DNA from: Eledone cirrhosa
Taxonomy: Eukaryota
Direction of reading: 5' to 3'
Assembly (NCBI GenBank): GCA_964016885.1
Contig: OZ024740.1
Span: 51,522,001-51,586,000 of the forward strand
DNA length: 64,000 nucleotides
Shown here piece by piece: positions 1-64,000 of this stretch. Both the position numbers and the translations under genes were made by a program. How positions within the stretch are numbered: the first letter of the stretch is position 1; each line of letters opens with the position of its first letter. The notes under the pieces were generated by a model. The model ran no database searches, was not told where the DNA came from, and was given only the letters and a program-made list of their open reading frames with translations.

Positions 1-1974
1 ACAAATGGGTTAATATTGCTATTGTGATTGAGTAGTCTCATTCAGAAACTGCTCAAGCAAAACTTTGTCAGCGTTAATCTAGGTTTGGGATTTCCAAACT
101 TATTTTGCCATGGAACCCTTATGATTTTCCAACAAATCATGGAATCCATACATATATTTTGTGGATAATCTCAACCACACTAATTCAATAAAACATTAAT
201 TAAAACAAAAATTGTTTTAGAGTATTTATAAAAACAAAACAAAACATGTATTCGGATGTATATTGAATTTTATTAAAATATATCTAATATCACAGAACAT
301 TTTCATGAAACCCTACTTTAAGAAACATTGATTTGGGTTATGGTTTTAAAATTGGAAGATAAAGTAGCCACATATACTCTTTGTTGTATAGTAAGGATAA
401 AAGTAATTTAAGGAAAACCTGAAGGGATAAAGGAAGAGGCTGTTGATTGAACAATATAATGTAATTTAGAGTCAAACTAAGTCGGTTTGATATGATGGAA
501 AATAAAATAAAAAAAACATAAAGTTTGATGTAGAGAAATATTTTGAGCTATTTGCTTTTCTCCTCCTACAAGCCTACTGAGAAGTTATCCCTTTCATAAA
601 AGAATTGATTTGGTAGTTGGGTGTAAAATGATTTCAAATGATAATACATTCATAGGTTGTGAGGAACAAGATGGAAAAAAGCTTTTGAAACTAGCACAGA
701 CATGGTTGTATGGCTAAGAAGTTAAATTCACACCCACATGGTGCTGGGCTTTATCCCACTGCATGGTGATTTGCTCAAATGTCTTGTACTTTAGTCTTGG
801 GTTGTTGACTAATGCCTTGTGAATGGAATTTAGTATATGACAAATGATCACAAGTGGAGGATGCTGGGCTGGAAAAGATGCATCCAACCCATTTAAGCAT
901 GGAAAAGCAGACATAAAATGATGATGATGATATAATATGAAGAAAACTGATAAACTGGTGCTTTCAAGCAAACATATCTTGTGGCATTTGTTCTACCAAA
1001 GTTGCATATCTGCTTCCTTGTCACTCTTGCCATTGTAAATGCAGTGAACCAGTGATTGACCTGGAAATATGTAACCAACAATACTGCTGTTCATAAAATG
1101 CAATATAAAACATAAATATATGAGGGATTATTAACTTGTTACTTAACTTGCCAATATAGTGATCAAATATCTCCCTAACTCCACATTAGATATGACTGAA
1201 ACCATATTCCTAAACTCTGATATAGGGTACAAGTGAATCCAGCTAACATTAAATAATGAAATAATATAACAAAACAAGTAAATAGAATATTAATAAATTT
1301 TAAAATGATATAATGTTAAATTAACTTATGTAGATTTTAAAGCCCAATGCATTAGGCTTTAAGCTGGTAGATAGCAAGCAGAATTTCAACAGGTGTCTCA
1401 TGTTATAGTAATTGTTATGAAGATTTACAACCTGAGACTTCTGTATATCATTGATATCAAAATAATTTATTGTGAAGTGACTTCTGAGATAAGAAGGTAT
1501 AAATATTTTGATCAGCTGCTAAATATAAACAAAGTTTTTAAAAAATATATTAATCAAGTGGGAAAAATCAAAAAATAAAACTCATATTTTAAGGCCAAAA
1601 TTTTGTTGACAAAATCTGTTTAAATTTGTTAGATAAGGAGTGTCAAATGTCTGCTTGATGGTATTCATCAACAGGACATTAACTTTATTTGTCTTCAACT
1701 TAAGTGGCATGATTCTCAGCAGTGCAAAAAACAAACTCATGCTCTCAATTCATCCAAAACAAGATTGAAATTGAAATATCTATGAAAGAACTAATTATGA
1801 TATAATTAAATCTAAATAAAAATATACCAACTATATCAAGACACAGTCCCCCAAAATAACCCTGCTAGGGACAGTTCAAAACACTTTCGATTCAATATCA
1901 CAGCTCAAACTGTACACACTCTGTACATAAATCATACTCTATACAATAAGCACTCAATAAAAGAATATAAGCCC

Positions 1975-2171
1975 ACGGTAAAAGGCAACACGGTAAAAAC
2001 CTCCCAGTCCCACACTGTAAATGTGGTTGGTGTTAGGAAGGGCATCCAGCTGTAGAAAACCCGCCAGACAGTCCTATGCGAGCAAGACAACCACTCTTGC
2101 CTCAAGTGGGAAAACTCCCGTCCAAACCCATGCAAGCGTGGAACATGGACGTTAAACGATGATGATGATGA
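1975..2171 (+). mobile_element. RTE LINE 3' UTR/tail fragment (subfamily B)
   Basis: Near-identical to 40290..40483; ends in a (GAT)n tail. Confidence 0.8.
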
Positions 2172-2239
2172 AGCCCACTCAAAAATACTCTATACAGTCT
2201 ACACAATCACCTAACACTATAACATAATACATACTCTAA

Positions 2240-4940
2240 CAAACGACAATGACTTCCTAATCATTGCAGGAGATTTTAATGGACACGTAGGTAAACACCG
2301 TGACAGCTTCTATAGAGTCGATGGAGGCCATGGGGTTGGCACAAGAAATGAAGAAGGCTTCAGGCTTCTAGAATTCTGCGACGCCAATGACATGTCGATA
2401 TGTAACACAAACTTCAAAAAATCCGACAACCATCTGATCACCTATAGATCAGGGGGAGCATTCTAGTCAGATAGATTTTATCCTCATCAGAGGACGTGAC
2501 AGATGGACGGTCGTAAACACAAAAGCCTTCCCTAGTGAGAAATGTACCTCCCAACATAGTTGACTTAGATGTCAGCGACCTCACGGTCAGAACTAGACGA
2601 ACCTGGAAACAGAAGCCAACCTGGAGAAGAAAGATCAGGAAGCTGAAAGATCCCTCAGCCAGTAACAGATTTAAAGATATTTTACTCAACGCCTATGACA
2701 GTAAAGAAGAGCAGATAGAAACATTCAATGTAGAAGAGCACTGGGAGTTCCTAAAAAATAACCTACTAAAGGCGACGGATGAGATCTGTGGCTGGAGTAA
2801 GACCACAGGCAGGAGGAGAGTGACTTGGTGGTGGAACAATAAGGTAGATGAGGAAGTTAAGGCCAGAGACAGGCATGGAAAGAGTGGAAGAATGGGGGAA
2901 GCAGGGTACATTACATAGAGACCAGGAGGGAAGCTAGGTGACAAGTATACTTAGCTAGGAGGGAAGCAGAGGATAGAAAATTCAAGCATGTTTTGCAACG
3001 TGAGGACTAGAAACAGGAGGTGTTCAAGATTGCGAGGCAGTGTGTCAGAGAGAATTGTGATGTCATTGGAGAGAAGTGTATCCGGAATGATAAAGGTGAG
3101 CTTGCCCTCACAAGTGCTGAGAAGAAAGATGCATGGAAGAGTCATTATGATAGATTACTAAATGAGGAGAATGCATGGGAAGAAGAGACCCTACCCCAAG
3201 TAGACCGTATAGAGGGGCCAGCAGTACAAGTCAGCAGCAGCGTAGTAAGTAAGGCAATCAAAAATATGAAGACGGGGAAGGCAACCAATCCATCGGGTAT
3301 AGCTGCCGAGATGCTGAAGGCATCTGGGTTGGTAGATCACACCATTACCACACGTATTGTTAACCAGGTAATACTAGAAGGTAGCATACCAACGGATTGG
3401 TGCAGTAGCATCATTGTCAACTGCTACAAAGGTAAATGTGATGCACTAGATAGAGGTATAAAGCTGATGGACCAGGTCATGAAAGTAACAGAAAGAGTTA
3501 TAGCACAGTTGATTAGGGACCGGGTGAAACTAGATGAGATGTAATTTGGGTTTGTGCCAGGAAGAGGCACCACTGATGTCCTCTTCATTGTGAGGCAGTT
3601 ACAGGAAAAGTACCTAGCTAAAAGTAAGCCACTCTACCTGGCATTTGTCGATCTCGAGAAAGCCTTTGACAGAGTTCCACGTGCTATAATCTGGTGGGCT
3701 CTTAGAAAACTAGGAGTAGATGAATGGCTTGTGAAAGCTGTACAAGCCATGTATAGAGGAACAGTCAGCAAAGTTATGATTAGCAATGACTAAAGCAAAG
3801 AATTTAGCGTACAGGTCGGTGTCCACCAGGGCTCTGTTCTTAGCCCTCTCCTGTTCATCATAGTCCTGCAGGCATTAACGGAGGAGTTTAAGACTGGATG
3901 CCCATGGGAACTCCTGTATGCAGATGACCTCACATTTATAGCTGAATCTAGAGAAGCAATTCCAAACTTGGAAGCAGGGACTAGAAAGAAAGGGTCTCAA
4001 AGTCAACCTGACAAAGACTAAGGTCCTTGTAAGTAGACGAGAAAACAGAACCCAGATCCCCTCAGGGAAATGGCCTTGCTCAGTATGTAGGAAAGGTGTA
4101 GGTAGGAACTCCATTCTCTGCCCCAAATGCAAACAATGGGTACACAAGAGATGTAGCGGGATCTCAGGAAGCTTAACTAAGAATGTAGGCTTCACATGTA
4201 GCAGCTGTGCTGGGACAGCAAGCAGCAAACAGCCACAGGAAACACGTACCACCAAACTCTGGGAGGGCTCTGTAGAAACAGTAGACAGCTTCTGCTACCT
4301 AGGTGACCGAATTAGCAGCGGAGGTGGGTGTTCGGAAAGTACAATACCTAGGGTAAGAACGGGATGGAAGAAGTTCAGGGAGCTACTGCCACTGCTAGCT
4401 GCAAAAGGCTTTTCCCTCAAAATGAAAGGCAGACTGTATGATGCGTGTATACGAACAGCAATGTTACATGGTAGTGAGACCTGGGCACTGAAGGTGGAAG
4501 ACTTAAGTAGATTATAAAGAAACGAAGCGTGCATGCTCCGATGGATGTGTAATAGTAATATACGTGAACGGCAAAGCATTAATGAATTGAGAGAGAGACT
4601 GAGCATAAGAGGAATCAAATGCTGTGTGCAGGAGAGGCGGTTGCGTTGGTATTGACATGTGATGCGTATGAAGGATGATAGTGGCATAAAAAGGTGTAGA
4701 GCACTAGAAGTCAATGGAAACCTCTGGCGTCACGCAGTAATACAGAAGACCCGACCCCCCACGGGTACAAGCTGAAGCATTTAGACAATATGCCGCCACA
4801 CCCCTCCCCTGCAAAGTGGTTGTGGAGGTGTCACAACAAAAAAGCACTCAGCCCACACTGTAAAGTGGTCGTGGAGGTGCCACGGCAAAAAAAGCACCCA
4901 GCACTCACTGAAAATGAGGTTGGTGTTAGGAAGGGCATCT
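2240..4940 (+). mobile_element. RTE-clade non-LTR retrotransposon (subfamily A), 5'-truncated and decayed
   Basis: APE motif IIAGDFNGHVG; RT motifs AFVDLEKAFDRVP, GVHQGSVLSP, LLYADDL; several stops and frameshifts; 3' UTR shared with other copies. Confidence 0.93.
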
Positions 4941-22556: not shown

Positions 22557-24910
22557 TTGTCTCACTTACTTACTGCTGAGGAACCTTTAGGTTACTCTGG
22601 TAATGCTATGATCATTGCCAATCTATTCCTCATGGGCAGTAACAAAAACCACAACCATCTCCAAACTGCTCACTTTGACTGGAATAAAGCAGACTGGAAC
22701 TGTTACTGCACCGAGTTGCAACGGCCAAACTGGCTTGAGTTCTACGACTCTGGAGATGTCAACACTGTACTCCAGAATATCCTGAGCTCAATATGGACAG
22801 CATGTGCAGCATCGGTGCCACGTAAGTGGAAAAAACATCCCAAAAGTGCAATTTGGGAGACTGCAGCAGTCCGTCTTGCCAGAAAAGAACGGCGCAATGC
22901 TGAACGTGAGTACAAACTTCACAAATCAGACATTAATAGGAAGAGGCGAAATAGATCATCCAACCACCTCAAGCAGGTGACAAAAAAGGCAGTGCTTCAA
23001 TTTGAGTAGCGCATAGCAACCAGCCCTGACAGTAAGGTGTTCTGGAAGTATGTTCACTCAAAGCAGAGGCCTCACTCTCCAGTTGGTCCTCTTCGCAATC
23101 CCCACACAAGCCAGGTTACTGACGACTCCAAGGAATGCGCAGAGTTCATTGCTGAATGCTATGCAGGCATTTTCACTATTGAAGACCAGAGTGTACCATC
23201 TCCACCACCTATGACACCGGACTCTATTACAACCATGGAATTTACACTTGCAATGCTGCGACGTCACCTAAAAAATAAACGCAACCATGCTTCTCCTGGT
23301 CTTGATAGTGTTACGTACCTGCTACTTAAACGTGGTGGGTACTTCCTTCTGCACCAGTTATCATGCTTCTTCCAATTCTGTCTGAACAACAGTGCTACTC
23401 CAGAACAGTCGAAAATTGCCAGTGTCATTCCTCTGTTCAAAAAGGGTGACCGCACATCACCTGTGAACTATCGTCCAGTCAGTCTTACTAGTTGCATTGC
23501 CAAACTGATGGAATCCTGTGTCAGAGAAACACTTTGGAACTTCTGGAACTCTCACAGTCTTATCCGGCCCTCACAATTTGGATTTATCCCCAACTCCAGC
23601 TGCTGTGATCAACTTATCGAGTTTCTTGAGGACATCACCCGGATCACTGATGGCGGCTCATGGGTGGATGTTGTTTACCTTGACTTTGCGAAAGCTTTCA
23701 ATTCTGTGCCACACAAAAGGCTTATGGCATAACTCTCTGCAATGGGTGTGAAGGATGATCTTTTTAACTGGTTGAAGTCCTTCATTCTCAGTCGAAGAGA
23801 GGTAGTCACGGTTCTGAGACAGCATTCCTCACCATATGAGATGTCATCTGGTGTACCACAGGGATCTGTTCTTGGCCCCTTTTGTTTGTGGCATATATTA
23901 ATGACATAGATGCCAACTTAAAGAATGCCACAGTACTAAAGTACGCAGACGACATCAAGCTATACTTTGAGATAAAAAGGACAGATCCTGAACACTATAG
24001 ATCTTGCTTGCAGTCTGACCTGGACACAATGCAACAATGGATCTCAGACTGGCAACTCAAGCTAGCTGTGGACAAGTGCACCACCATGCATTTTGGGAGT
24101 AAAAACCCAGCGTCCACATACTCCCTCCACAGCACTAATATCAAGAAGTCTTCTTGTGAATGTGACCTGGGCATTACGGTCAGCAGCGATTTGCGTTGGA
24201 TGAAGCACGTCTCTAAAATTGTCAAGAGGGCTGAGGGTATCTTAGCATCACTCAGCAAGACCTTTGTCAGCTGCTCTCCAGCTATCTATTTAAGGCTGTA
24301 CATGACTATGGTACAGCCACACTTAGAATTCGCATCACCAGTCTGGAACCCCTATCTTGCTCAGAACATTGACCGCCTGGAAACTGTTCAGAGACGCGCA
24401 ACCAAGCGAATACCCTCCATCAGGCATCTACCATACTCTGAATGCCTTGCTTCCCTGGGCATGGATACATTGAAGCTCCAATGTTTGGCAACTGACTTGG
24501 TAAACACCCACAAAATTATTAACCATCTTGCCAACAACAACCCTGAGTACCTTTCTGATTTCCATGTGTCTAACACACGTGGACATGTCCACAAAGTCAG
24601 AAAACAGCACAGTTCCCATGACTTTCGGAAACATTTTTTCACGCTCAGAGTTGCTGAAGCATGGAACAAACTACCTGCATCAGTTGTTAGCTGTCGAGAC
24701 ACTGCATCCTTTAAAACCTCCATGCTTCCCGAGATTCGCCAACACTACACCTAATATTCCCCCTCCATACACACAAACACATGTATATCATGACTCACAC
24801 TATTCACTTCCCTGACATTTGTATATTATTCTATGTACTATACATGCACCTTTGATGAGTTGTAGTGCATCTGAGCACTTTACACAATAATTTCATTATT
24901 ATTATTATTA
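22557..24910 (+). mobile_element. CR1-like LINE, 5'-truncated ORF2
   Basis: NYRPVSLTS, YLDFAKAFNSVPH, GVPQGSVLGP, KYADD, C-terminal FFTLRVAEAWNKLP; (ATT)n tail; stops at ~23007 and ~23730, frameshift at ~23880. Confidence 0.92.
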
Positions 24911-36238: not shown

Positions 36239-37214
36239 TTAAAGCATTCAGATGGTTACCCAACCTGCTAGAAATAATAGCTAAATATCTCTCAAATGCA
36301 CTGATTTCATCATAAAAAAGTGCATTGGATAATGTAGTTTTAAAGATACTATGTCTGAAAAAATGATCATAGCTGGAAGCCTTCAGCCCAATGAGAAAAG
36401 GGAACTTCTCCATGGTGACCCAACTTGCTAGAAATAGCATTCAAATCTCCCTTAAATCCCACCAATTTCATCTCGAAAAAAGAAGGATGTATTGGGATAT
36501 TAGAGTCCTGCATATACTAAGACTAACAAAAATGGTTGTAATGTCTTTGATCATGGATCTGCTCAATCAGAGTGTGCCTAGGGCTAAATAACAATTTCAA
36601 TGAATTACTTTTAATAAACATGTTTGCATTTCTTTAATTCAGTCTGTTAAAGCCTGATTCACCCCCTTCCACTGTTAATATGTATCACTGCAGCATTTTT
36701 GAAGCAGGGTATTAACTTCATTCCATAGGTTTTTAGAAGAAGTCCTCTGTTTGATGCTGCTTGATATTATTATAGGTAAACATACACTATGTTTTTTATA
36801 CAAAACACACAGAAATATATGATGAATTGTCTGCTTATTGGAATATATAAACAGTATAAAAAGAGTGTAAACTTTTCTTTACTATAAGTACTTCCAGCTG
36901 AGATTACATTTGTGTGTATGTTTCTGGGAGTTTTTTTCTATTTATTATAAATCTACGAAAACACATACACGAAAACCTTGGAATACAGGCTCTGGATATA
37001 TCTGTCCTGTCATTTGGTATACACACACACACATATACAGACAGTCACACAAGCTAATAACCACATAAACTCACTCAAATACACACTAACTGATAACACT
37101 CATAAACACACTCACACACATACATGGACACACTTGTATACACAGGCACATATAAACACACAGAAATATCACAACCACACACAAATCCACCCCACACATA
37201 AACATGCAAAAAAA

Positions 37215-40200
37215 CGATGCTATAAGCTTTTCTGGGTGGGAAATGACAATGGGCTGGGTGGGGTAGGAATCATGTTAGCAGAAAAATGTGTGCATAAGAT
37301 AATAGACGTAAATAGAGTGAATGACAGAATAATTAAAATAAGACTTGTTCTAAATAGAACTACTGTGACAGTAATATCTGTGTACACACCCCAATCCGGA
37401 CTGCCTGGCGCTATAAAAGACAGATTCTATGAGACACTGATGCTCACTACCTCCCAAATAACCGACAGTGACTATATAATTATTGCTGGCGACCTAAATG
37501 GTCACGTTAGACAACATTGTGACAGCTATGACAGAATCCACGGAGGCTATGGGTTTGGTACTAGAAATGAGGAAGGCTCCAGAATCCTGGAATTCTGTGA
37601 TGCAAATAACCTAACTATCTGTAACATTAACTTCAAAAAACGAGACAATCACTTGATCACCTACAGATCAGGGGAACACACAAGCCAGGTAGATTATATC
37701 CTTACCAGGAGACGTGACAGAGTGTCTGTTGTAAACACTAAATCCCTCCCCCATGAAGAATGCAGCTCCCAACATAGACTGATAATTAGCGACCCCATAG
37801 TCAGGACGAGACGTACTCGACAACAGAAGAGGACTATCCTCAGCAGAAAAATATGGAAGCTAAAGGACCCCACAGCCAGAAATAAATTTCAAAGCATATT
37901 ACTTGATGCTTTCGACAGTAAGGAAGAGCAATTAGAGTCGTATAATGTAGACGAACAGTGGGAATTCCTGAAAGCAAACCTGCTGATGGCGGCAGACGAA
38001 ATCTGTGGCTGGAGCAGGCCTGTAGGCAGGAGGAGAGTAACATGGTGGTGGAACAGTAAGGTGAAGGAGTCAATTAAGGCCAAAAAGCAGGCTTGGAAAA
38101 TATGGCGGGATGGGGGAAGTAGAGAAGACTATCAAGTGGCTAGGAGACAAGTGTACTTCGCAAGAAGGGAAGCAGAGGAAAGAAAGTTCAAGCATGTTCT
38201 ACAACGCGAGGACCAAAAACGTGAGGTGTTCAGGATTGCTAGGCAATGTGTCAAGGAAAACCGTGATATTGTCGGGGAGAAGTGTGTCCTTAATGATGAT
38301 GGTGTACTTGCCATCACTGACGCTGATAAGAAGGTAGCTTGAAAGTGTCACTACGAAAGGCTACTAAATGAGGAGAATAAATGGGAGAAAGACAGTCTCC
38401 CCCACATCGATCCAATAGAGGGACCAGCAGTGTTAGTCGAAGGTAGTATAATAAGTAAGGCAATCAAAGATATGAAGACGGGTAAGGCGGCTGGGCCTTC
38501 AGAAATAGTTGCTGAAATGCTGAAAGCTTCTGGAACGGTGGGACACACCATGGTCACCCGGATAGTAAACCAAGTCATACAGAATGGGGTTGTTCCGAAG
38601 GACTGGCGTAGCAGCATCATCATTAACTGCTACAAGGGTAAAGGAGATGCCCTAGATAGGAGTAACTATAGAGGCATTAAATTAATCGACCAGGTCATGA
38701 AGGTCACAGAAAAAGTAATAGCGCAACTAATCAGAGAGAGAATTGATCTAGATGAAATGCAGTTCGGGTTTGTGTCAGGTAAAAGTACCACAGACGCTCT
38801 TTTCATTGTACGACAACTACAGGAGAAGTACCTAGCTAAAAGTAAACCCTATACTTAGCTTTTGTCGACTTGGAGAAAGCCTTTGACAGAGTCCCCCGTT
38901 CCATTATCTGGTGGGCTCTTAGAAAACTAGGTGTTGATGAATGGCTTGTGAGAGCTATACAAGCCATGTATAAAGAAACAATCAGCAAGGTTAGAATTAA
39001 CAACGAATATAGTGAAGAGTTTAGCGTAAAAGTTGGTGTTCATCAGGGCTCCATTCTTAGCCCCCTACTATTTATTATTGCCCTTCAGGCTATAACAGTG
39101 GAGTTCAAGACCGGCTGCCCATGGGAACTCCTATACGCAGATGATCTAACGCTCATAGCTGAATCAATGGCCGAACTAGAGAAGAAATTCCAAACATGGA
39201 AGCATGGCCTAGAATCAAAAGGCCTTAAAATTAACCTGTCTAAGACTAAAGTTCTAGTTTGTAGGAAGGAAAATAGGGCACCGGTCCCATCCGGGAAATG
39301 GCCATGCTCAGTGTGTAGGAAAGGAGTAGGTAGAAACTCCATTTTATGTCCCAAATGCAAAGTATGGGTGCATAAAAGATGTAGTGGGATCACAGGTAAG
39401 CTAACTAAGAACATAGATTTTATATGTGGCCGGTGCTCTGGTGCAATAAGTAGCAGCAAGTGCCCACAGTATACTAGCTCATTCCATTGCACAGATGGTT
39501 CTATAGAAATAGTGGACACCTTCCGTTACTTGGGTGACAAAATCAGCAGGGGTGGAGGGTGCTCTGAAAGTACAGTTGCTAGAGTCAGAACTGGATGGAA
39601 AAAGTTCAGAGAGCTTATACCATTATTAGCCGCTAAAGGGTTCTCTCTAAAAATGAAAGGTAGGCTGTATGATGCCTGCATACGAACAGCAATGCTGCAT
39701 GGCAGTGAGACCTGGGCATTGTGTGCAGAGGATATACGCAGACTAGAGAGGAACGAAGCTTGCATGCTCCGCTGGATGTGTAATAGTAATATACGTGAAC
39801 GGCAAAGCATAAACGAACTAAGGGAAAAATTAGAAATAAGAGGGATCAGATGTTGTTTACTCGAGAGAAGACTACGTTGGTATGGTCACGTGATGCGCAT
39901 TAAAGACGACAGCTGTATAAAAAAGTGTAGGGCAATAAAAATAGACGGTAGCCACGGAGTAGGCAGACCCAGAAAAACCTGGGACGACTTGATAAATTCT
40001 GACCTCACACACTTACACCTCTCCAAGACAATGTCACTGGACCGAGATCTTTGGCGCTACACAGTAATACAGAAGACCCGCCTTACCTAAGTACAAAGTG
40101 AAACCTACTACAGTCAGTAGGCACCTCTAACAAAAATACACCCCGTCCCACTACCCCCACCCCATCCACACCACCCCTTTCAATGTAAAGTTATGTTGGT

Positions 40201-48215: not shown

Positions 48216-48324
48216 TATTGTTATAGCTCAGTTACATGCTGACTTTTTGTATCAGTTGTTTATAGTCTGAATTAGGACATTTATTTTAGATTCACATGAC
48301 ATTTCATCATTTCCTGTATACATA

Positions 48325-49278
48325 TGTAGTGACCTACATTCCGCGGGCTCACATACATTCTCTGTGCGTGATTTGGCTCAGCTCAGCCAATCAGCACCAG
48401 TAGAAGAGGATGTATCCCTACGCGCCCTGAGGGAGAAATTCCCCGCGAGGATTTGAAGAATCTCTCTCTCGCACCCCGAACTTCGAACCAGCAACACGTA
48501 CAACATGTGACGGGGAGATTTTGTACTTTGGCCTGCCGGCCTTCCTTGGGCCTGGCACAATGGCACATTCCCTTTTGTAACCTCATTTTATGTGTAACTT
48601 CAACCATACAAGTTAACAAACATTATTTGTGCTACAACAGGGTAGGGCGGTAGATTGGCAGTATCGGTAGAGGGCCGGACGCCATGCTTTCCAGCATAGT
48701 TACGTCCCTTTACAATCTGAGTTCAAATCCCGCTGAGGTTGACTTTGCCTTTCATCCTTACGGGGTCGATAAAATAAAGTACCAGTAATGCACTGAGTAA
48801 TTGCTGGCTTTGTGCCTAAAGTAGAAACAATTATTTGTGCTACAACAAAAATAAACACGTCGGGGTCATCACTTTTAGCAGCGTAGTATATAAATGTTAT
48901 TGAGACACGAGTAACACAATAATGATGTCAACGGCAGAAATTAGAGATGAAATGTATGTTTATTTTTGTTGTAGCACAAATAATGTTTGTTAGCTTGTAT
49001 GGTTGAAGTTACACATAAAATGAGGTTACAAAAGGGAATGTGCCATTGTGCCAGGCCCAAGGAAGGCCGGCAGGCCAAAGTGCAAAATCTCCCCGTCACA
49101 TGTACGTGTTGCTGGTTCGAAGTTCCTGGTGCGAGAGAGAGATTCTTCAAATCCTCGCAGGGAATTTTTCCCTCAGGGCGCGTAGGGATACATCCTCTTC
49201 TACTGACGCTGATTGGCTGAGCTGAGCCAAATCACGCACAGAGAATGTATGTGAGCCCGCGGAATGTAGGTCACTACA
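48325..49278. mobile_element. Fold-back element with ~320-bp inverted arms, TGT..ACA ends and CATA TSD (LTR-derived / Ginger-like)
   Basis: Arms 48325..48857 (minus the SINE) and ~48957..49278; CATA at 48321-24 and 49279-82; tRNA-Trp PBS-like 16-mer at 48856..48871. Confidence 0.88.
48640..48829 (+). mobile_element. Full-length Meta-like tRNA SINE with 18-bp TSD
   Basis: A box TGGCAGTATCGG, B box GAGTTCAAATCC; TSD ATTATTTGTGCTACAACA at 48622 and 48830. Confidence 0.92.
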
Positions 49279-49630
49279 CATACATATGTACATACATACA
49301 TATGTACATACATGGTGGCTGCCAACTCGTTTTCGAGTACGGCCACTACATATCCATGTAGGAGAACCCCTACCGATGCGCTGAACGAGTGTAACCTTTT
49401 AGTCCAGCCAGCGACTTGAACACTCTGGTACAAACACTACACTTGTGACAATTATTGACACATAGTGCTGGGCCCATGGTACCATGTGACGACAAGTGCA
49501 GAGAGATCTCCAGATATAAAGCAATGCCTTATATATGTATGTATGTTTGTATGTATGTATGTACATATATATGTACATACATACATATGTACATACATAC
49601 ATACATATATACATACATATATAACATACA

Positions 49631-56516: not shown

Positions 56517-58256
56517 TATAGCAGAAAAATATTATTATGCCATGTTGGCATAATATTAATAAGAAAGTTTATTAATGCTTTCTTGGCATAATAAGAATAA
56601 GAGGTGTTATGTGATATGATGGTTGTACACGAGGTATTGAAGTATGAATAAATGTAGTTGTTGCGTGTTGTTTTTAGAACACAAGGAGTTGTTAGGCTAT
56701 TTGTTATGGCTAGAAATGTAACGTATATTATGTGTGAGAGAAGTGAATGTTTGTTGAAGTAGTTGTAAGTCTTCGATAACATTTTTACATGCTTTTATTT
56801 ACATACTAAATACAAAGAGTTGAGTTGAGTTGAGATAACATGTCAAACAAACAGTATCAAACAAAATTAAGAGTTTTAAGCAGAGGAAGGCATGGTCTGC
56901 TGGCCGAGGTGCTGGCCAGGCTGAAGTTATGTTGTTGTTACATATTGGCTAGTGGTTTACCTTTCCACGATTAAAGCAGCAAGAGAGAGCATATACAAAA
57001 GAAGCGGGAAAATCTTTGTTTGGGTGGAAATTGAAATATATATCTGTGCGCGGCTTATGATTGGCCTAACTTAGCCAAATCACGCACAAATAGCTTATTA
57101 ATACGCCAAGAAAGTAGCTTTGCTACAATACCCCCTGTTTAGACCAGAAGGGTGAAAAATAAGAAAAAAGTGAATTCGGACATGTCACCAGTGTGAAAAC
57201 GCTGAAAAAGAGCACATCAATAAAAAAAATGAATGAATGAATGCAAGAAGAAAATTGTGAATGAGGCGCCAAGGGGCCAGTGTTATGTATGCCGCTGTGT
57301 CAAATGACTGGCTGTTTGCTATTTATAACATGACCACCCAGGGTCTAATAGAAAACAAATAAATTCTGACATGGGCGAAAAATGTGCAAAATGTTTTTAA
57401 AGTTGTTGTTCTTGCATTAATTGTTATAAAAGTTGTTGTTGGCGGTGGCGGTAAAAGTATGAAACTACCACTTCTGTTATGTTGCTGTGAAATCGCCGTT
57501 GGTGTTGTAGCTGTAGTTGTTGTGGTAAATGTTTTACCAGTAGCTGTTGTCAATGATGATGCTGTTCATGGTAAGTGGTTTACTAGAACTGTTGTGGTAG
57601 TCGTTGGTGATGTAATTGTAGCTGTGATACTGCTATCCGTAGAGGTGGTAGTTGCAGCAGTATAAGTATAAAGCTGTCACTATGTTGGCGTTGTCGCTGT
57701 TGTAAATGCTGCTGTTGCTGTTGGTGTAGTGGTTCACGATAGCAGCTGCTGGTGTAGTGGTTTACGATAGCAAATGCTGGTGGTGCTACGGTAGCCATTT
57801 TGAAAAAAAGTTTTCTCGTGCTGTAATTTTTTGAAATACTGCTAATAATTTTTTATATTTTAAAGGAATATTTCCTACGTCTGGTTCACCAATTTATTGC
57901 AGAAAAATAATATTATGCCACGTTGGCATAATATTAATAAGAAAGTTTATTATGCTGCGTTGGCATAATAAGAATAAGAGGTATTGTGTTATAGAAGATA
58001 GTACATGAGGTATTAAAGTATCAATAAATGTACTTGTTGCATGTTATTTTTGGCTAGTGGTCGAACGGCAAAAGAAAAATGGTATTTACCTTTCCATGAT
58101 TAAAGCAGCAAGAGAGAGTATATACATAAGAAGCGGGAAAATCTTTGTTTGGGCGCAAATTGAAATATATATCTGTGTGCAGCTTACGATTGGCCTAACT
58201 TAGCCAAATCACGCACGAATAGCTTATTAATATGCCAAGCAAGTAGCTTCGCTACA
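56517..58256 (-). mobile_element. Small non-autonomous LTR retrotransposon (Gypsy-type TRIM-like)
   Basis: Direct repeats 57895..58256 and 56517..57127 starting TGTAGC; PBS TGGTGAACCAGACGT (tRNA-Trp-like, 57877..57891); PPT AGGGGG; AGAT TSD. Confidence 0.85.
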
Positions 58257-62089: not shown

Positions 62090-62769
62090 CTGAGTAAACA
62101 AAAAAAGAAAAATGTAATGAGGTTTGAAATGGCCTTTGAGACAGGTAGTGAAAAGGAAGTAGACTCTGTTAAAGGCCCACAAGAACTGAGTGTTAGTGTT
62201 AAACTAAGAAATAGATTAATTCTACTAACTGAGAGTAGAAACGATCTCTCCAGGATTCTGTCTACAAAATGTTACTCCTGTTTGTTTTGGTCAACATAAG
62301 ACACTTGGCCTAGGTGTTATATAACACAAAACTAAGTAGTTATGAAACAAAGTGGAGAAATAACAAAAGCTAGAGAAAAGAACAAGAATAAATATCTTGT
62401 ACTCATTATTTCTTTCTTCATTCTGAAAGTTCTGATTAAGAAATCTATCCTGGGATTATCTTTGCTTTTCAATGTATCATATTGGGTTTTGAGGTTGCCA
62501 ATAAAATAAACACCTCTCCAAATAAAATTTCAGTTATTATTCAGACCCAGGTCAACTTAGATCAATTAAAGAAGTCCAGCCACAACAACTCCATCTCTTT
62601 ATGATTATATAGAGGATTACAATTTAATATATCCTTCCAAAGTTTTTTAAACGATGTTATAGTTTGATTCAAGGAATACTTAGCTGCTATTTCTAGCAAG
62701 TAGAGCAACTACGTATAGGCTTTCTAGTTTGCTTAATAATATGTGGGTGAAACATGCAAACCATTGGTT

Positions 62770-64000
62770 TGTGTGTAACCAATGGTGTCGTGTGTAACCA
62801 ATGGTATTGTGTGTAACCAATGGTGTCGTGTGTAACCAATGGTATTGTGTGTAAACAATGGTATTGTGTGTAACCAATGGTGTCGTGTGTAACCAATGGT
62901 GTCGTGTGTAACCAATGGTGTCGTGTGTAAGCAATGGTATTGTGTGTATCCAATGGTACTGTGTGTAACCAATGGTATTGTGTGTAACCAATGGTGTTGT
63001 GTGTAAACAATGGTGTTGTGTGTAACCAATGGTATGGTGTAACCAATGGTGTCGTGTGTAACCAATGGTATTGTGTGTAACCAATTGTAGTGTGTGTAAC
63101 CAATGGCATTGTGTGTAACCAATGGTATTGTGCGTAACCAATGGTATTGTGTGTAACCAATGGTATTGTGTGTAACCAGTGGTATTGCGTATAACCAATG
63201 GTGTCGTGTGTGACCAATGGTGTTGTGTGTAACCAATGGTGTTGTATGTAACCAATGGTGTTGTGTGTAACCATTGGTATTGTGTGTAACCAATGGTATT
63301 GTGTGTAACCAATGGTGTTGTGTGTAACCAATGGTATTGTGTGTAACCAATGGTGTTGTGTGTAACCAATGGTGTTGTGTGTAACCAATGGTATTGTGTG
63401 TAACCAATGGTGTTTGTGTAACAGATGGTGTTGCGTGTAACCAATGGTGACATGTGTAACCAATGGTGTCGTGTGTAACCAATGGTGTTGTGTGTAACCA
63501 ATGGTGTCGTGTGTAACCAATGGTGTCGTGTGTAACCAATGGTGTCGTGTGTAACCAATGTTGTTGTGTGTAACCAATGATGTTGTGTGTAACCAATGAT
63601 ATTGTGTGTGACCAATGGTATCATGTGTAACCAATGGTGTCGTGTGTAACCAATGGTGTTGTGTGTAACCAATGGTGTCGTGTGTAACCAATGGTGTCGT
63701 GTGTAACCAATGGTGTCGTGTGTAACCAATGGTGTCGTGTGTAACCAATGATGATGTGTGTAACCAATGATATTGTGTGTGACCAATGGTATCATGTGTA
63801 ACCAATGGTGTTGTGTGTAACCAATGGTGTCATGTGTAACCAATGGTGTCGTGTGTAACCAATGGTGTTGTGTGTAACCAATGGTGTTGTGTGTAACTAA
63901 TGGTATTGTGTGTAACCAATGGTGTCGTGTGTAACCAATGGTGTTGTGTGCAACCAATGGTGTCGTGTGTAACCAATGGTGTTGTGTGTAACCAATGGTG
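62770..64000. repeat. 19-bp minisatellite (TGTGTAACCAATGGTRTYG)n running to the window end
   Basis: More than 60 tandem units; translated frames repeat every 19 aa. Confidence 0.97.

Follow-up and report, generated by a model that had tools for sequence, protein, structure and literature searches.

Inverted insertions recur in a non-coding Gypsy-type LTR family of the Eledone cirrhosa genome, and none of them has multiplied as a DNA transposon. The unit that led us to them lies at positions 48325..49278 of the window (the whole 64-kb stretch of DNA that was analysed), where two LTR arms of opposite orientation meet at a tRNA-Trp primer-binding site (PBS) between flanking CATA motifs. It is likely a reverse-transcription error that was inserted as one unit.

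Anatomy of the inverted unit

A check of the sequence placed the unit at these coordinates with the structure given by an earlier, sequence-only reading (LTR, AG, PBS and an inverted arm of about 320 nt, flanked by CATA), the inverted arm measuring 322 nt. On the minus strand the order is the 405-nt LTR, AG, 16 PBS bases, then inverted LTR positions 322 to 1. The long arm (48874..49278, minus strand) is a complete 405-nt LTR, TGTAG..GCTAAA, with its U3 end outward, found elsewhere as direct-repeat and solo LTRs. It is followed by the AG spacer between LTR and PBS (48872..48873, minus strand), the same as in normal copies, and by TGATGACCCCGACGTG (48856..48871, minus strand), which represents the first 16 of the 18 PBS bases with one mismatch. 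At the junction (48856..48857), the PBS end overlaps the inverted arm by 2 nt, which read TG on the minus strand. The short arm (48325..48857, plus strand) corresponds to LTR positions 1-322, also with the U3 end outward, and its minus-strand reading ends in ACTACA at 48325. It is interrupted by a later SINE insertion of ~190 bp (48640..48829, plus strand), for which sequence comparison revealed its own flanking 18-bp duplication (48622-48639 and 48830-48847). The SINE, which may be akin to the octopus tRNA-derived SINEs, has 75-96% matches at 9 other places within the 64-kb window.

The target-site duplication (TSD) CATA stands at 48321..48324 on the left and at 49279..49282 on the right (both plus strand). 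Because it sits in a TACA-like microsatellite, CATA as sole evidence at this locus is weak. Both outer ends of the unit are U3 ends reading TG..CA, and the U5 end of the parent family is AA. The unit has neither a polypurine tract (PPT) nor direct LTRs, and its longest open stretch is 96 aa, hence no coding frame; an Rfam search gave no match above gathering scores. An arm-to-arm alignment of 315 columns shows 96.5% identity, with differences at 8 substitutions and one 3-nt indel (2.56% by substitutions). Given these differences the unit is not a read fold-back artefact, and an assembly fold-back was also rejected on the SINE, which with its own duplication is present in one arm.

Parent LTR family

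The 405-nt arm is the true LTR of a non-coding Gypsy-type family of 2.2-2.7 kb, as had been proposed from the sequence, for it occurs as direct terminal repeats with the PBS in the same place. Searching the 3.0-Gb genome with the arm yielded copies at 92-96% identity among the best 40 of 2474 candidates scored, and family LTRs occur both as solo copies and as direct pairs ~1.8 kb apart (L039, for example). The 5' LTR copies have AG and then TGGTGACCCCGACGTGAT downstream, and the PPT GAGGGGGAG, then TAT, stands directly before the 3' LTRs. The family makes 4-bp TSDs, with an exact match in 22/27 copies examined; one of the misses is a mis-paired end and three are one-base differences. Translation of two elements gave a longest stop-free stretch of 120-137 aa. 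An 18-mer from the LTR start has 1795 exact occurrences in the genome, spread over subfamilies, while an anchor for the window unit's subfamily occurs 294 times and one for subfamily B 641 times.

A coding element of 5.4 kb (L073, 3758-9196), of Gypsy type, has LTRs 98.4% alike with TGTAG..CTAAA ends, the same tRNA-Trp PBS as the family, a PPT and a 4-bp TSD (TCCC). It holds RNase H and integrase-zinc domains, with coding frames in pieces, and shares only 25 nt with the parent family, around the PBS. An element of this type is a candidate helper for the family, a partnership that we infer.

Subfamily B (L054, L056, L058 and L065) has a degenerate PBS missing two C bases, yet its copies are young, their LTR pairs differing at 1-8 of ~552 sites; its LTR also contains an older PBS-like stretch internally. 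The window's SINE type has inserted several times in family LTRs (L063, L075 and window position 48640), and in L063 it is found in both LTRs near LTR position 290-313, near the insertion site in the window.

Primer-binding site and position of the join

The sequence-only reading had proposed a tRNA-Trp PBS, and comparison with the genome's own genes agrees: 15/16 bases match the complement of tRNA-Trp(CCA) plus CCA, based on 5 genes called in L084. Normal family copies carry an 18-nt PBS complementary to the tRNA-Trp 3' end. In the other LTR-PBS junctions of the subfamily-A pattern, ATGAAT follows base 16 in 22/22 distinct junctions fetched. In the window unit, the join falls at PBS base 14-16 of 18, within the tRNA copy and with no internal sequence, which places it at the end of strong-stop DNA and upholds the link to that intermediate drawn earlier.

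The L084 locus (G000:C4:353.39-353.49 Mb) is an array with ~38 matches to the tRNA-Trp 3' end, and the 5 tRNA-Trp genes came from a 6-kb sample of it. No tRNA genes were called in the 64-kb window. ARAGORN called no tRNA-Trp in L078-L083, most of which resemble extended PBS copies: in L079-L083, tRNA-Trp 3' ends with encoded CCA reach 22-30 nt into the T arm outside whole tRNA genes, and from their sequence these look like extended primer-site copies.

Common origin of the two arms

Both arms carry one allele found in 0/52 other LTRs and share three uncommon alleles, each present in 7-13 of the 52. Their distance of 2.56% falls inside the 1.3-3.9% range of nine direct 5'/3' pairs; since 231/1317 unrelated LTR pairs are equally close, this distance by itself is not decisive for common origin. 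The 3-nt indel and one site at which the arms differ are both variable within the family, and these differences may reflect recurrent mutation or two templates; gene conversion could be an alternative route to homogeneous arms. From the TSD and the private allele of its arms, the unit looks to have integrated as one piece, in line with the single integration proposed earlier.

Inverted units elsewhere in the genome

Groups with more than one LTR within 6 kb were drawn from the first 100 matches to each of three anchors. Among the matches listed there were 61 such groups, 4 of them inverted, or 3/60 once the window is set aside. L031 came separately, from the arm search, and was confirmed genome-wide. 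Four further inverted units (L031, L051, L052 and L075) have independent junctions.

L031 (G000:C2:234231600+, 1498-2338) has two U3 ends and two full LTRs around a 15-nt loop made of a PBS remnant and internal bases, with a TSD of GGGG/GAGG (3/4 match). Both of its arms carry 5 alleles that none of 52 other LTRs has. Because 7 internal bases beyond the PBS are present and 7 PBS bases are missing, L031 is not pure strong-stop DNA. L051 and L052 belong to a sister subfamily with a 553-nt LTR, and their outer ends are both U5, the mirror of the window unit. L051 (G000:C1:40890500+, 550-4707) contains three LTRs within an exact TSD (ATCA/ATCA) and is joined 13 nt from the LTR start with a 3-nt overlap; L052 (G000:C1:58257800+, 545-3476) also has an exact TSD (CTTA/CTTA), and its join, with a 6-nt overlap (7/8), falls in the final LTR bases ahead of the PBS. 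Within L051, 1/540 sites distinguish the middle LTR from the right one, and these two differ from the left LTR at 11 and 10 of 529. The L052 arms differ at 15/553 sites, compared with 1-8 in six direct pairs and 10-18 for the nearest other copies. In this the L052 arms resemble unrelated copies and not direct pairs. Both L051 and L052 look like two-template products, and gene conversion could also have produced the pattern. L075 (G000:C1:252992600+, 643-2338) has two U5 ends and a SINE in one arm; its flanks (GAGC/ACAG) form no TSD, and its join lies elsewhere than at the reverse-transcription stop points. This TSD-less unit shows that inversion can also come about in other ways.

The TSD is thus exact in 3/5 inverted units and matches at 3/4 bases in one more, and chance 4-mer sharing between independent target sites occurred in 50/1104 comparisons (6/544 without TA sites). 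In each of the TSD-bearing units (4/4) one arm has its end no more than ~15 nt from either the PBS or the LTR start, the places where reverse transcription stops or transfers in the established model, as outlined in the accessible part of PMC6894440. We tentatively suggest, at somewhat less than even confidence, that a few percent of two-LTR insertions in this family are like-ended (U3-U3 or U5-U5) inverted units that arise where reverse transcription stops and enter the genome with exact TSDs.

Two other candidates were rejected: L046 matches no LTR and is a short palindrome due to chance, and C1:354.67-354.69 Mb (L076, L077) holds separate elements. In L071 (8563-9985; G000:C8, near 14286400), a coding Gypsy-family LTR with exactly 18 PBS bases is joined to inverted pol sequence of ~850 nt, from the RNase H region; its second LTR was not found within the 16 kb fetched.

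Origin of the inversion

The origin to which we give rather more credence than doubt is a switch of plus-strand strong-stop DNA, at its 3' end, to a sister plus strand, producing a linear DNA with two U3 ends that was inserted by a Gypsy integrase. We infer the steps before integration as follows. Plus-strand synthesis would copy the LTR, AG and the tRNA end; the 3' end would then miss the minus-strand PBS and meet a second stalled plus strand in antiparallel, each being extended on the other. The linear double-stranded DNA formed, with its two U3 ends, would be joined to the target with a 4-bp stagger by the integrase, likely acting in trans. A product with neither PPT nor direct LTRs would undergo no further retrotransposition. 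Such a strand switch is supported by the LTR, PBS, PPT and TSD of the parent family, the tRNA-Trp match, the private allele of the arms, the recurrence of independent junctions and the two-template look of L051 and L052. TSD-flanked insertions made by inter-strand template switching have precedent in the part of PMC1950507 available, and L075, which has no TSD, also has no join near the PBS or LTR start, unlike the four TSD-bearing units. Against it stand the extra internal bases of L031, the microsatellite around CATA, possible gene conversion, and L075 being inverted without a TSD.

The sequence-only reading had instead proposed a base-paired snap-back at a special site: a single strong-stop strand folds on itself, is extended to a hairpin and is copied open to give two U3 ends before integration. 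The join at the PBS end, the private allele common to the arms and the arms of L031, clearly of one template lineage, all suit this route, but we judge it unlikely, as the site offers only 2 Watson-Crick pairs, 35 LTR sites are equal or better, a better 5-nt pairing site was passed over, no stable fold exists at the join, and a hairpin has one DNA end, the second needing an extra unexplained step. With so short an overlap, so many equal sites, an unused better one and a one-ended hairpin, pure snap-back is less likely than a strand switch. L051 and L052, which look two-template, also speak against it, and no strong self-priming site was found in a check of LTR pairing and folding. Pairing alone cannot account for the join site, since the overlap is only 2 nt, and the window arms by themselves cannot tell an intermolecular switch from a snap-back. 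Another improbable route, on which we place similar weight, is that one integrase complex took a U3 end from each of two cDNAs, whose inner ends were fused by host end-joining. Two-donor concerted integration of this kind, mentioned in the accessible portion of PMC2857682, covers U3-U3 as well as U5-U5 units, perfect TSDs, overlaps of 0-6 nt and two-template arms, and its final sequence is identical to that of a strand switch; however, it does not predict junctions at PBS or LTR ends unless the donors are unfinished intermediates, in which case it merges with the strand switch. Lower still do we rate two independent opposite insertions, made at one site or close together, with a subsequent deletion through the palindrome centre. 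Inverted LTR-retrotransposon tandems of this origin appear in the available text of PMC5932611, and the microsatellite site and the TSD-less L075 fit them, whereas the chance rate of 4-mer matches (50/1104) against 3/5 units matching at 4/4 and one at 3/4, the private alleles shared by arms and the clustering of junctions at reverse-transcription stop points do not. With a microsatellite around CATA and the empty site unobserved, this sequence of events keeps its small share of probability.

The most distant alternative is an LTR-derived MITE moved by a Ginger-type DNA transposase, which we consider highly improbable. An LTR-to-MITE/Ginger route had been proposed for this unit, and its TG..CA termini, long inverted arms and 4-bp TSD do fit Ginger2 in form (50-180-bp TIRs and 4-bp TSDs in the accessible part of PMC2836005). 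Copy number here contradicts the idea. The junction 22-mer occurs once in the genome with <=1 mismatch allowed, as does the LTR end plus PBS with a non-A base after base 16; the inverted 14-nt anchor pair gave 0 matches for a SINE-free sibling at spacings 170-230 and 231-291 and 1 match, L031, at spacing 292-352. The anchor and junction searches used exact patterns, which diverged copies could escape. An amplified MITE, which would show the one structure at several places with different TSDs, was accordingly rejected: the junction is single-copy, no SINE-free sibling was found at spacings 170-291, and every inverted unit has its own distinct junction. The window unit has not multiplied, and there is no MITE/Ginger amplification. 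Nor does the likeness to Ginger1 hold: its targets are CCGG/CCGT and its TIRs 40-270 bp, again as far as the available text of PMC2836005 goes, and the unit has CATA, a 322-bp arm and, at a longest 96 aa, no coding frame.

Comparison with known systems

The closest described case is the template-switch complexes of LTR retrotransposons in Triticeae, rice and maize (Sabot & Schulman 2007, PMC1950507), which in the accessible text are TSD-flanked and in direct orientation; the window unit is their inverted variant. As in those complexes, a chimeric product of abnormal strand switching bears one TSD and is taken as a single integration, and L051 has three LTRs. Unlike them, with their direct arrangement and one U3 plus one U5 outer end, the halves here are inverted with outer ends alike, and they are joined at the PBS or LTR end. 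Inverted tandem TE dimers (McGurk & Barbash 2018, PMC5932611) likewise hold LTR retrotransposon copies head-to-head or tail-to-tail, but, as far as the available part of that paper describes, they are pairs of complete elements that hold target sequence where they meet, whereas the window holds one truncated unit with no internal target DNA. The parent family is like the non-autonomous Gypsy-dependent elements (TRIM/LARD; the animal Helenus in the accessible part of PMC10886601) in having two LTRs, a tRNA PBS, a PPT, no coding sequence and a 4-bp TSD, but at 2.2-2.7 kb it is larger than TRIM, and its U5 end reads AA instead of CA. The window unit, with no PPT and no direct LTRs, is unlike elements of that type. 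It resembles Ginger1 and Ginger2 in its TG..CA termini, inverted terminal arms and 4-bp TSD, and differs from both, as they appear in the part of PMC2836005 at hand, in having no transposase, no copy family and 322-bp arms that are demonstrably LTR.

In the accessible portions of these sources, aberrant HIV integrations have host DNA rearranged at one end (PMC5041404), and inverted or opposite LTRs are mentioned singly, without mechanism, in PMC5210030 and PMC7166211. A literature search reaching few subscription papers yielded no report of inverted LTR units that have like ends and a flanking TSD; the four additional like-ended inverted units found beside that of the window are new here.

Such units are genomic fossils of reverse-transcription intermediates and make strand-stall points and the joining of co-packaged genomes testable from genomes alone. 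Their sequences point to an animal Gypsy-type integrase that can use two ends of the same kind. LTR-finders that require direct repeats miss them, and they may be mislabelled as MITEs. They create inverted repeats of 300-1500 bp, predicted to give double-stranded RNA if transcribed. Should a regular like-ended class exist, it would count among the general by-products of LTR retrotransposition and seed long hairpin loci, and its U3-U3 form, with perfect TG..CA inverted termini, would be a ready substrate for TIR-type elements. For a route from LTR element to DNA transposon, there is a plausible starting structure here and no sign of the second step.

Other elements of the window

An older non-coding LTR element lies at 56517-58256 (minus strand), with a TSD of ATCT, a PPT and two LTRs that differ by a large indel. 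The kinship once proposed between it and the unit stands in so far as the two share a motif and a Trp-like PBS, but only as that of a distant relative: as a parent it was rejected, with a 31-nt motif at only 87% to the arm, internal patches at 76-93% to a family copy and a PBS matching tRNA-Trp at 13/15. Long frames at 23840-24751, 36951-40087 and 62683-63999 are what we take to be fragments of non-LTR reverse transcriptases, which they resemble, together with a tandem-repeat frame at the window end.
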